Assembly (NCBI RefSeq): GCF_003704095.1
Contig: NW_020844790.1
Span: forward strand, 310,001-374,000
Source of the DNA: Pocillopora damicornis
Lineage: Eukaryota
Direction of reading: 5' to 3'
Length of the DNA stretch: 64,000 bases
Numbering within the stretch: the stretch's first letter is position 1; each line of letters starts with the position of its first letter. This document shows, piece by piece, positions 52,377 through 59,946 of this stretch. The position numbers and the translations under genes were made by a program. The notes below the pieces were generated by a model. The model worked only from the letters and a program-made list of their open reading frames with translations. It did no database searches and had not been told where the DNA came from.

Positions 52377-53311
52377 TCAAATACACCCGCATTCCTGAAC
52401 AATCATATTATCAAATTTCCTCAATAAAACCTTCTCCTGCTGAAACACCAATAAAGAGACTGATCGCCACTTTATTGGGACACAACAGGACCTGCTACCA
52501 TCGGTTGGGTAACTCTTGTTCTTTGAGTTCAGGATTGTCATCATCAGTGAATAATTGTTAGCTTCCCCACTGATGCACTTCCCCACACACCTAAAAGCAT
52601 TGAACCCCGAAGGTGCAATGACTAGATCAAAAAGGGTACTATTCTGAAGATCCGAAAAGCTCACATACATCGGCACCCTTCGGCAAGCATCAGCTTCATC
52701 TTCTTTCTTCTCTGGAAGAAGTTTGCTTTCTGTTTCCTTGCTTGAAAATGGTTCAATTTGGACTTCATTGTGCTTTTCAGCTGCTAAAACAAGATGAAAG
52801 TGAAATGATGGAATTTTTATCGCAAGACTTTTCTTTTTCGGTCTTTGGGCTTAGGGATTATGCAGATCAAGTCGCTATAAGTATTGAAGATAAATTGTCT
52901 GTACTCTATTCATTTCCTGCAAGAAAACATTATTGCAAACGTCTGCCTTCCTTCGTAAAATTGTGATCCTCGTAACGTTGTGAGCTGAGAGCAAATAAAC
53001 CATTAGATTTTTAAGTTTATCGATCATTTCAGAAACCTGCAAGTTTATGACAACGTTTCCTCATCGAACTAGTGACTGACTGGATACATTCAGAAAAATC
53101 GAGCAAGAGGAAATACATCGTTTAACTTACATCCTCCTTGAATTAGACTCGAAAAGTGCTTCTTTGGACCCTTCGTTTCAGGAGAGTTTTTCGGCTCTTC
53201 AGAACGCGAAGTTTTCTGTAAACGGTTTTTATGAAACATTCCCCTTCCAGACACAGTCAAACTCAGAATGAAGAGATGCAGTACAAAAAGGGATACGAAC
53301 TGATTCAACAT
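52377..53311 (-). CDS. Miniature TGF-beta/BMP-family ligand 2, about 195 aa (exons 53311-53131, 52783-52377; NAGNAG acceptor)
   Basis: Signal peptide MLNQFVSLFVLHLFILSLTVSG. The mature region reads ACRRVPMYVSFSDL...VIAPSGFNAFRCVGKC...SCCVPIKWRSVSLL...NMIVQECGC. Confidence 0.9.
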
Positions 53312-54193
53312 GATTACGAGCAAGGTAAACCTTCTGTAGAGTTTATCGTTCAAATACTCCTAGAATCAACCAAAGGTGTCAAATTGCTAAATTCTTGTGC
53401 TATCGTGTTATTTCTTTTTTTTTGAAAAACAAAAGTGGCTTGAGCTGAGAGAAGTGTCAGAGGAGGTCTCGAAAAAATATTTGACTCAGCTACCTGATGA
53501 ATGAGGGCCACAAAGATGCACAATCAGATTAGTTTAGCAGCCATGTCCCCCGGCCAGTATTGACGAAAAGCAGCAATAAGGGAGGATTCCTTATGATAAG
53601 CCAATGGTTAGTACTGTGCAGTATGCACCGGGTTCTAATTAACTGCATAAATGCGGTGTGATATCAACGCAGAGCAAAAGAACAGTAGGAAGGCTCATCG
53701 GTTTTAGTACTTTGTCCCTCTATTTCTTCCTGTACGCTTAAAAAATTGTCAGTGATCACGCACTTACATGAAGAAAGTCTACACAAAGTACTTAGGAAAC
53801 ATTTCCACTGACATATTTTCGTTATCTTCTTTAGTGAGAAAACTTCACATTCTTTTGATTATAGCTGGGTCGGTTGAATCAATGCATTCAAATGACTCAG
53901 CAAATTTGATGTTGTAAGTGAAGTTTAGGCACAAGGAGCAGAAGAGTCATATTTCACTATATTTCTCGTTAATTTCACAGCACACCTGCAACGCGCCTTA
54001 TTCACCCTAAGTACATAAGAACGCTTTCAGTGTAAGATTTCAATTAATTAGTTTTTCCCACCGTGATCCGTCTCGCAAGTAAACAGACACAGGCAAAAAT
54101 AAAGCATGATGTGCAAACATATAATAAATGAACAAACACATAAACTATACATAAATACATTAATAACGTGATAAAAAGAACCTGGGAAGATGT

Positions 54194-54226
<33 letters not shown>

Positions 54227-55366
54227 GTTCAAGCGTCGATTTATATTTCTAAATTCATTGTTTTATTTGTCGACTCACGCGGCAGGTCATGATATGGAAA
54301 AGAGCCTGCACGTAGTCTACGTTACGTGTCTGTACTATTCGTGACAATAGTCGGAGCGTAAAGCGTCCCTTCCGGAGCATGGTCGGTAAGGGAAGCTTTC
54401 CATACGACGCGCAAGATATCGAGTGTAGGAAACGAGATGAGAGATGATACTTACTTTTATGCGACTCGTTTGAATCCCGCTTCAACCAAAATTATTCATT
54501 GTGAACTTTTACCTTAAATGAGAACTGGAATCTCATCTCGGGCTTATAGTTTAACTAACTTAGGATCAATTTGGACATTTTTTGAGGTACTTGGCACTTA
54601 ATGACTCCCACTCTCCAGCTTCATGTGTGTGGGGAAAATAAAAAAGAGGGAAAAAATTATTAGAGATCCGGCTGAAAACTTTAATGAATTGCAGAGAACT
54701 CTCAGGTCTTGTGGATCTGAGCCCATCTCTCTCAGACAGTCACGTATTTCTGGGTGAGGCTCGATATTTAGTAATTCAGAGATCACCACAAAGTGTCTGC
54801 TATTTATCCTTCGAAACTTGAACTGGTTTCCAAGATTGATGTTGCTGTGCGATTTTTGCATTAACAACGAGTCCGAAGCAGAGGATTTATTAATACCCTG
54901 GAATGGGACAGAAAGTGCGTGGCCATAGGCAGCAAGTCATGACACGTGAAGTGACTGGTATTTCGTGTCGTTAACTGATTATTTGATACCCTTATATGGA
55001 AGACTCCTTGTTAATTCAATCAAGTAGCACGGGTCAAGGCCAAAGTTAAAAAAATAGACAGTACAGCTATGGTCAAAATAAGACCATTATTACAATAAAG
55101 GGGCAAAGCAAGACTGTTTGTTATAAAAGTGAGAAACATTTTGTAAAGGTGTATAAGGTTGTTGTAAAGTTGTATAAGATGTGTACGATGAGGTTCCAAT
55201 TAATCTTTGGTCTAAAATTTATTTGCCTTTTTTTCGGTTTTATACCTTATTTATTTCCTTTTTATTAGGTACGGCAATGTTTGATATATGACTGAAACTG
55301 ACGAACAAAATCCCTGATAAAATTACACCATAACGTATCTAAGGTTTAGAAACTGATGTGAGTGAA

Positions 55367-57415: not shown

Positions 57416-57600
57416 GGTGAATAAAGGGGGTACGTTTCTTAAGAAACTGTAGTGCTGCGTCGGTGGGAGAGTATAGCAGTAATTTAGTGTTAACAACTGA
57501 GTTAAAAACGTAAATTAGCCACCGTAAAGAGTAAAAAAGCTGACGTCTCGAGCTTTTTTACTCTTTACGGTGGCCAATTAACGTTTTCAACTCAGCTCAA
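57416..57600. mobile_element. Palindromic Penelope-associated insertion specific to duplication unit 2
   Basis: Inverted arms of about 45 bp span 57497-57595. The element is absent at the matching site (about 50845-50950) of unit 1. Its head GAATAA.GGGG...GTTTCT..AGAAACTGT.GTGCTG also occurs at about 39080. Confidence 0.7.
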
Positions 57601-59049
57601 AACAGTTCTCAGAAGCTCGTCCTTGAGGTAAGAGTGGATACATTGCTCCTATCAGAAGCTGTATGTTGTTCAGTGCAGAGAAACGTTCTTAATTACGGCG
57701 AATCAAATAAAATAAGTAAATTTGATGTGAAGTTTTTTCGTTTTTAGGTAATTCGAAACTGAATTGAGAGCATGCGAATCTTCGTCTAATAATAGCTTTC
57801 GCTGGAAAAAAAAATGGCCTTCTGTTCCTTGGATAGACTTTCGGTTTGACTGAGCACATTGCATGTAACTATGCTATAGATTAAGTGTCTTTGTGCCAAG
57901 CAAACTGTGTTCATTAAGACCGTCCTTATTTCCTTAGAAGAAACAAATACTGAAAGACCGTAAGTATGAGAGTTTTCTTAATCATAGAATTCTAGCACAG
58001 CAGGTTGCTTCCTAATTGTCTTGCACCACATACTCTTGGATACTATAAGCTCTCTTAGTCCGAGAGAAAATACTCTTATCTGCAAGGGGTATTTCACTGA
58101 TATTTTCATTTCGAATAAAATGCCTTTAGATACTGAAATGTCTGAACTATTACCAACAACTGTGATGTCGATGAACATTTTTACGTACTTTTTTCCTAGA
58201 CTTTGTTCCATCGTTACCGATCGCCTTACCTTCAGGACCCTTATGACTGCTTAACACAAGAAACTTGCATGTCATCAAAACACCCACTCTGAGAAAATAT
58301 CACCGTTTTGCGATGGCCTTCTCTCCATATGTTATTCTTATACCCTCGAGATTTAAATCCCTGAGGAAAACCGCTCGGCCAAAGAGAGGATTCTACACAA
58401 CTATTAGGCACTTCTTTTTTTTAATGCTTTTGTTTTCTGAGAACCTTAACTGATTGAAGCTCAGCTGTGAAGCAAAATTTTTCTGTGGACAATGGTTTTT
58501 TTTTCTCACTTCGTTTGTTTTCTGAAGCTGCAACGTATCTTGCATGTAAAAACCCAGAGACCTTTCAGTAAAATCACTTTCGGAATGCTGGTGACAAATT
58601 TTCAAGAGTAATAAAGACGATTAAGGAGAAAGTACTCTCTCTTACTAATACTGCTGCTCAACTGGGGAATTTATCCCTAAGGAATCTGACAACTGTCCGG
58701 CGGATGTCCTTATACAGGATTTGCTTTGAATTGGGAAGCTTCTCAGTCACATGAAATCCTTTTACACTGAAACATCTCGATGAAGTGGCAAACTTTTATT
58801 ACTGTAATCTGCATCACAACAATGAAGAATTGTACTGGATGTTCACAATACGCTAACATCCCATAAGTTTTTAAAAAAAATTACAATTGTTAATCAGCAT
58901 TGTTTATATTGGTAACAGTTCCTTCGCTAAACGAAAACTTTCGCAAATTACATGAAGGTGGCCTTATCAAGCGTAAAGGTGTCCACCGTTTAAAGTTTGC
59001 CCGACACTACACAAAAATCTTAACAGTTAATCGTAAGGACCAAAACGTT

Positions 59050-59946
59050 TCACATACACCCGCATTCCTGAACAATCATATTATCAAATTTCCTCAATAA
59101 AACCTTATCCTGCTGAAACACCAATAGAGAGACTGACCGCCACTTTATTGGGACGCAACAGGACCTGCCGCCATCGGTTGGGTACCTCTTGTTCTTTGAG
59201 TTCAGGATTGCCATCATCAGTGAATAATTGTTAGGTTTGCACTTCCCCACACACTTAAAAGCATTGAACCCCGAAGGTGCAATGACTAGATCAAATAGGG
59301 TACTATTTTTAAGATTCGAAAAGCTCACATACATTGGCACCCTTCGGCAAGCATCAGCTTCATCTTCTTTCTTCTCTGGAAGAAGTTTGCGTTCTGTTTC
59401 CTTGCTTGAAAATGGTTCAATTTGGACTTCATTGTGCTGATCAGCAGCTAAAACAAGATAAAAGTGAAATTAAGGAATTTTCATTTTCAAGACTTTTCCC
59501 TTTTGGTCTTTGGGCTTTAGGGCTATGCAGATCAAGTCGCTATAAATAAAAATTGTCTGTACTCTATTAAGATTGCAAACATCTGCTTTCCTTCGTAAAA
59601 TTATAATCCACGTAAAGTTGAGAGCTGAGAGCAAATAAACCATTAGATTTTTAAGTTTATCGATCATTTAAAAAACCTGTAAGTTTATGATAACGTTTCC
59701 TCATCGCATCAGTAACTGAATACATTCAAAAAATAGAGCAAGAGGAAATACATCGTTTAACTTACATCCTTCTTGAATTAGACTCTTAAAGTGCTTCTTT
59801 GGACCCTTCGTTTCAGGCGAGTTTTTCGTCTCTTCAGAACACGAAGTTTTCTCTAAACGGTTTTTATGAGCCATTCCTCTTCCAGACACAGTCAAACTCA
59901 GAATGAAGAGATGCATTACAAAAAGGGACACGAACGGATTCAACAT
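59050..59946 (-). CDS. Miniature TGF-beta/BMP-family ligand 3, 192 aa (exons 59946-59766, 59447-59050)
   Basis: Close paralog of gene 2 with an intact frame and a 7-Cys knot. Confidence 0.9.

Follow-up and report, generated by a model that had tools for sequence, protein, structure and literature searches.

Short TGF-beta ligands with an altered type I receptor site in the coral Pocillopora damicornis: candidate knuckle-binding decoys

A 64,000-nucleotide stretch of the Pocillopora damicornis genome (contig NW_020844790.1, positions 310,001 to 374,000; hereafter the window) contains three minus-strand open reading frames, genes 1, 2 and 3, each above the cut-off for the PF00019 profile. All three encode short ligands that lack the 'wrist' residues facing type I receptors in BMP2, whereas genes 2 and 3 keep the 'knuckle' residues facing type II receptors. 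The favored reading, at a probability of about 0.4, is that genes 2 and 3 encode secreted competitors that would bind through the knuckle and be unable to engage type I receptors. In anthozoans, BMP signaling sets up the second body axis, and it has also been tied to coral calcification (PMC11226491, PMC13581030).

Wrist and knuckle residues in the window and in the family

Residue numbers follow BMP2, and the alignment was made against BMP2 chains of the Protein Data Bank (PDB), in which BMP2/4 is the best match to the domain at ∼35% identity. An earlier note on this DNA had claimed that both tryptophans of finger 1 are absent from all three genes, and the alignment bears this out. The GWNDW of BMP2 aligns with QNSTLFDL in gene 2 and KNSTLFDL in gene 3, a three-residue insertion in which W28 and W31 are both replaced by leucine, and gene 1 has a deletion at this position (AANNS). 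The F49-P50-L51 motif is likewise missing from all three TGF-beta domains. The pre-helix loop was also said to be shortened, and it is: the stretch between Cys47 and position 59 is 9 residues long in gene 1, 6 in gene 2 and 3 in gene 3, compared with 11 in 107 of 114 canonical ligands. As the note had observed, the sole indel between the mature domains of genes 2 and 3 falls in this loop.

On the opposite surface, A34, P35, S88, L90 and L100 are kept in genes 2 and 3, and the VIAP, SVSLL and VLLRK segments are present there as previously described. The general claim of an eroded wrist with a kept knuckle stands for genes 2 and 3 and for much of the family, and fails for gene 1 (A34H, S88R, L100M), whose domain (44254-44556) also lies outside the interval that the note had given for the trio. 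The seven cysteines, including the interchain cysteine, are retained in all three genes and the CC motif is invariant. Genes 2 and 3 both carry an NST sequon in the finger-tip insertion and an N59-x-S/T sequon that gene 1 lacks.

The family consists of 197 proteins with a complete mature domain and a score of 125 bits or more against the family profile, prodomain-bearing relatives excluded, which reduce to 74 below 90% similarity; counts out of 76 add two window proteins. The comparison set of 114 canonical ligands (from 150) was gathered by the same searches and is thus a non-random sample. W28 is kept in 2 of 74 family members versus 96 of 114 canonical ligands and W31 in 1 of 74 versus 108 of 114, while F49, P50 and L51 are each kept in 0 of 74 versus 72, 96 and 77 of 114, respectively. 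At the knuckle, P35 is kept throughout (74/74 and 114/114), S88 in 58/74 versus 87/114, L100 in 48/74 versus 77/114, and L90 in 50/74 versus 110/114 (95% similar). All four variable knuckle positions are kept in 42 of the 76 members, but not in the branches of gene 1 and of L010, a related gene described below. The asymmetry between wrist and knuckle in the family is real, not universal, and the loss of the tryptophans, judged from these counts, exceeds chance. The glycosylation pattern also differs: the canonical N56 sequon occurs in 0/76 members versus 75/114 canonical ligands, and the N59-x-S/T sequon in 51/76 versus 2/114. The latter is found in 33 of the 42 members with a full knuckle and in 18 of the 34 without.

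Mature-domain trees of 102 columns each, one with 87 rows by a quick method and one with 56 rows by a careful method (31 near-duplicate or long-branch rows dropped), both place the family in one clade, with support of 99 in the Shimodaira-Hasegawa-like approximate likelihood ratio test (SH-aLRT) and of 100/98, respectively. The true BMP2/4 of the genome, L002, groups with BMP2/4, and the family is placed apart. Orthology to BMP2/4 or Nodal, as implied by the NCBI names, is not supported by this separate clade in a tree that had no bona fide Nodal row, and the database labels 'BMP2-A-like' and 'nodal homolog' can mislead coral expression studies. The family clade also contains unnamed relatives with a propeptide remnant and a furin site. 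The tryptophan pair is already gone in most of the long, prodomain-bearing relatives, and so the wrist probably changed before the prodomain was lost or independently of that loss. A topology with the short members monophyletic to the exclusion of long relatives gives p = 0.31 in the approximately unbiased test, by which a single prodomain loss is neither rejected nor shown. No locus of P0289, a prodomain-bearing relative, turned up in a metagenome scan, and nothing in the P. damicornis genome is closer to P0289 than the short genes. Another unnamed prodomain-bearing relative, P0204, keeps both tryptophans, but carries Pro at the S88 position, the antagonist signature of Panda and Lefty.

Named members come from Pocillopora (three species), Stylophora, Orbicella, Oculina and Desmophyllum, all of them robust corals. 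The restriction of the family to robust corals is not proven, because the majority of members are unnamed and the profile search spanned proteins of 51-385 aa only. The family is tandemly expanded, and repeatedly so; in Oculina, four members with near-consecutive locus tags share one contig. The window genes are conserved in Stylophora.

Gene structure, prodomain loss and expression

The coding sequence of each of the three genes is split into two exons by a single phase-1 GT-AG intron, and the predicted exons reproduce the P. damicornis RefSeq proteins exactly (196, 195 and 192 aa for genes 1, 2 and 3), with a NAGNAG acceptor in gene 2 giving RefSeq isoforms of 195 and 194 aa. The features, in window coordinates, are as follows.

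44254-44556, minus strand: mature TGF-beta domain of gene 1.
44254..44666, minus strand: gene 1 exon 2, with the last part of the spacer and the mature domain (Cys1 codon at 44556), which is eroded at both wrist and knuckle; matches RefSeq P0339.
44965..45142, minus strand: gene 1 exon 1, encoding the signal peptide and a short spacer; phase-1 GT-AG intron, junction 44666/44965.
52377-52685, minus strand: mature TGF-beta domain of gene 2.
52377..52783, minus strand: gene 2 exon 2, spacer without RXXR and mature domain, Cys1 codon at 52685; matches RefSeq P0003.
52548..52556, minus strand: N59-Y-S sequon of gene 2, read from the sequence, at the start of the wrist helix and directly after the 6-residue pre-helix loop.
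52611..52643, minus strand: finger 1/2 tip of gene 2, NSTLFDLVIAP, with both tryptophans gone, the three-residue insertion with its NST sequon, and VIAP kept.
53131..53311, minus strand: gene 2 exon 1, encoding the signal peptide and a short spacer; intron 52784-53130 of phase 1, junction 52783/53131; helix 2-21 in the model.
59050-59349, minus strand: mature TGF-beta domain of gene 3.
59050..59447, minus strand: gene 3 exon 2, spacer and mature domain, with the Cys1 codon at 59349 and a pre-helix loop of 3 residues; matches RefSeq P0006.
59221-59229, minus strand: N59-Y-S sequon of gene 3.
59766..59946, minus strand: gene 3 exon 1, encoding the signal peptide and a short spacer; phase-1 intron.
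46579..61499, no strand assigned: tandem segmental duplication giving genes 2 and 3, in which 46579-54880 resembles 55659-61499 in pieces 80-89% identical (self-BLAST).

The proteins share one layout, in which a signal peptide is followed by a spacer of ∼70 aa and the mature domain. The signal peptide is assigned from a hydrophobic N-terminus and helix 2-21 of the model rather than from a dedicated predictor. The full-length AlphaFold model is weak, with a mean predicted local distance difference test (pLDDT) score of 59.6, and supports only the disordered state of the spacer and the fold class. An RXXR site before the mature domain was looked for in genes 1-3 and none was found, and the PF00688 propeptide has no match in 8/8 short members versus weak matches in 5/5 long relatives. 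Across the family, RXXR occurs within 45 aa of Cys1 in 4/53 proteins versus 96/109 canonical proteins. The length before Cys1 is 44-117 residues in 52 of 53 apparently full-length members, the exception being a fused gene model.

A fourth gene of the same design, L010, sits on another contig of the genome. In five prodomain-bearing ligands of this genome, pattern-based calls put the acceptor also in phase 1 and 158-256 aa upstream of Cys1, compared with 33 aa in L010. This suggests that the short genes arose by internal deletion within the last exon. Overlooked upstream prodomain exons are ruled out, as the two-exon models equal the RefSeq proteins exactly and RNA contigs join exon 1 to exon 2; the same evidence rules out pseudogene status. 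If these proteins fold and are secreted without a prodomain, they provide a natural test of the rule that TGF-beta ligands need one.

RNA contigs are spliced at the predicted sites in three of four runs for gene 1 and in two of four for gene 2. For gene 3, contigs cover exon 2 over 58781-59290 in one run (X8); its own splice junction was not seen in eight RNA runs, which is no evidence of silence. The GenBank model pdam_00011009 (P0340, RMX48429.1; window 44254-53311) merges genes 2 and 1 into one 387-aa protein, against which the spliced contigs and RefSeq back two separate genes. Exon 2 is about 95% identical between genes 2 and 3. The ratio of non-synonymous to synonymous substitution rates (dN/dS) between their mature domains is ∼0.36, on just 10 non-synonymous and 7 synonymous differences. 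In run X16, a spliced contig joins a gene-3-like exon 1 to a gene-2-like exon 2 (window 52781/59766), and some database proteins are mosaics of gene 2 and gene 3 loops and flanks. Such mosaics point to unequal crossover, gene conversion or copy-number variation among Pocillopora.

Elsewhere in the window, tandem gene repeats occupy 1-11705 on the minus strand, including a single open reading frame of 996 aa (8718-11705) with a signal-like N-terminus and neighbors ∼83% identical. Inverted duplicate exons with a GASGPTG motif, presumably akin to NAD(P)-binding motifs, are arranged around 26081-26580 within 23243-29258. A multi-exon minus-strand gene at 30173-37643 has helical exons that by eye resemble spectrin repeats.

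Decoy, agonist or another partner

Under the favored reading, the proteins of genes 2 and 3 would be secreted as disulfide-linked dimers with no furin step and no latency. A glycan at N59, perhaps joined by one on the finger-tip NST, would mask the wrist, and the knuckle would bind BMPR2/ActRII-type receptors or modulators of the Noggin, Chordin or follistatin type. These partners would be occupied without Smad signaling being triggered, and the net effect would be a local damping or retuning of BMP/activin signaling, the sign of which would depend on the partner: inhibition if receptors are bound, potentiation if antagonists are. Competition between ligands for type II receptors is an established mode of antagonism (PMC6953019), and L51P in BMP2 abolishes type I binding only (PMC2749821). 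The hydrophobic knuckle is kept in these proteins though no arm of a prodomain covers it, which may point to some other binder. Gene 1, with the knuckle also lost, falls outside the decoy reading and would need another partner.

Ectodomains encoded by single exons of the host genome include those of two putative type I receptors (BMPR1-like L021 and ALK4/5/7-like L022) and one BMPR2-like receptor (L023), with class names assigned from motifs. The BMPR1-like ectodomain at L021:1396-1809 appears to have Met at the 'knob' Phe position of vertebrate BMPR1A, and L024:207-1803 holds at least two tandem exons resembling activin-receptor ectodomains.

Several observations weigh against decoy function. 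A34 is kept in 38/74 family members versus 103/114 canonical ligands, and the members are phylogenetically non-independent. Other pocket positions (N59, L62, M63, I66, L89, F103 and M106) are either retained or replaced conservatively in genes 2 and 3. N59 presumably lines the type I receptor pocket; a search for a citable source for this placement found none. The Oculina patagonica protein P0079 (XP_078355688.1) keeps both tryptophans (GWKNW) despite having the N59 sequon and a loop of 3 residues. BMP-type ligands have low affinity for type II receptors (PMC8256043), and a wrist-dead BMP would thus be a poor competitor unless its affinity or level were high. Pro occupies position 88 in the natural antagonists Lefty, Panda and inhibin alpha (PMC11239237), but not in genes 1-3. 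Finally, a pre-helix wrist glycan can enable type I binding, as for BMP6 and ALK2 (PMC12415261), and two ligands without either tryptophan signal: anti-Mullerian hormone (AMH), through ALK2/3/6 (PMC8256043), and Panda-P461S, an agonist with Ser at 88 as in genes 2 and 3 (PMC11239237).

Two side observations concern tryptophan loss. The N-terminus of P0079 is near-identical to that of its Trp-less paralogue P0066, which makes a natural comparison pair. Loss of both tryptophans is not rare in the P. damicornis genome: of its 17 complete TGF-beta domains, 8 have neither, and four of those eight belong to divergent ligands outside the short-ligand family (L013, L015, L016 and L017), in which furin-type basic sites seemingly persist ahead of the mature domain.

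Because AMH and Panda-P461S lack both tryptophans yet signal, tryptophan loss by itself is, by analogy, not diagnostic of a decoy, and it cannot serve as the marker of decoys or antagonists that the earlier note had made of it. The parent Panda protein of Paracentrotus, also without both tryptophans, antagonizes ACVRII through Pro at position 88 (PMC11239237). Panda-P461S turns antagonist again once its L51 equivalent is destroyed by an L51P-equivalent change (PMC11239237, section 16), and this state, with no tryptophans, Ser88 and a broken pre-helix loop, is the closest match to genes 2 and 3. More tentative than the reading of these two genes is the wider proposal that robust corals possess tandemly expanded, latency-free 'mini-ligands' in which the prodomain and furin site were deleted and the N-glycan moved onto the type I site, making them glycan-shielded, knuckle-only decoys and a route to antagonism independent of inhibin, Lefty and Panda. 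If the coral proteins are indeed decoys, they would add a ligand-type antagonist of independent origin, whose predicted glycan shield could be probed with a single point mutation.

The strongest competitor, less probable but a serious alternative, is that these ligands are AMH-like agonists of low type I affinity, which would bind type II receptors first, recruit a coral type I receptor through the remodeled wrist and activate Smads free of furin control. The Trp-less agonists and the wrist glycan of BMP6 described above fit this model, as do the kept Ser88 and interchain cysteine, the wrist helix predicted at residues 137-147 with low pLDDT, and a 9-residue replacement loop conserved in 65 of 74 members. 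However, the agonism of Panda-P461S required the L51 equivalent, and that loop has shrunk to 6 residues in gene 2 and to 3 in gene 3. Its difference between paralogues so alike in exon 2 would also be unexpected for a working type I contact.

Slightly less probable again is action on a non-Smad receptor or the matrix through a basic surface around the wrist, which would be the best fit for gene 1. GDNF-family ligands and GDF15 act outside the Smad receptor system. Lys and Arg in positions 48-77 average 6.4 in the family versus 2.0 in canonical ligands, and the mature-domain isoelectric point is 8.5-9.6 in the eight members computed. Although both wrist and knuckle residues are gone from gene 1 and the L010-type branch, these genes remain intact and conserved, and gene 1 is expressed; the repeated tandem expansion is also consistent with such a role. 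This model leaves the retention of four knuckle residues in 42/76 members unexplained and offers no candidate receptor.

That these proteins poison heterodimers of BMP2/4 or BMP5-8 in the manner of inhibin alpha, as the earlier note had suggested, is improbable. The interchain cysteine and dimer-core residues are kept, but heterodimers of wild-type and L51P BMP2 are nearly fully active (PMC2749821), which contradicts the idea, and prodomains, which the short ligands do not have, are thought to steer heterodimer assembly (PMC6953019). Least probable of all is that the duplicates have no specific role and are decaying as selection on them relaxes. An exon 1 dN/dS of ∼0.9, the gene 2/gene 3 mosaics and the variable loop length speak for this, but it is at odds with open frames, seven cysteines and the same architecture across five coral genera, and with spliced transcripts.

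Comparison with known systems

Searches of literature titles and abstracts, which covered no subscription papers, turned up no description of this family, and a search by six accession numbers gave 0 matches, as did the supplement of PMC11701869. The accessible part of a review of cnidarian BMP signaling does not describe it either (PMC11226491).

The genes share with BMP2/4, the source of the NCBI automatic name 'BMP 2-A-like', the seven-cysteine cystine knot, the sequence identity given above and, in genes 2 and 3, the knuckle residues. They differ in having no propeptide, RXXR site, W28/W31 or FPL motif and in placing the sequon at N59 rather than N56, and are not orthologous. AMH resembles them in lacking both finger-tip tryptophans (PMC8256043), but acts as an agonist, has a type II receptor dedicated to it and carries a large prodomain. 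The sea-urchin ligand Panda, an antagonist of ACVRII, and Drosophila Maverick share a divergent W-x-x-W motif (PMC11239237). The antagonism of Panda needs a long beta6-beta7 loop in addition to Pro88, and the protein has a prodomain, in contrast with the Ser88 and short loop of genes 2 and 3.

Lefty lacks the interchain cysteine. The likeness to Lefty and inhibin alpha lies in the proposed mode only, a ligand-like protein with a defective wrist that would sequester receptors. The hallmarks of Lefty, Panda and inhibin alpha that were looked for, Pro at 88 and a long beta6-beta7 loop, are present in none of the three genes, which have Ser88 (genes 2 and 3) or Arg (gene 1) and a short loop. The interchain cysteine is kept and the wrist helix is not deleted, as it is in inhibin alpha (PMC11239237). 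By these residues, genes 1-3 are not members of the Lefty or inhibin families; the inhibin/Lefty-like competitors that the note had envisaged remain plausible for genes 2 and 3 as competitors, without the Lefty or inhibin hallmarks.

GDNF-family ligands have short precursors. Fish GSDF is similar in this respect (GSDF cluster 192 aa, Atlas score 0.89), a lead only and not a sign of orthology. Ligand-type antagonists and short-precursor ligands are both already known kinds.

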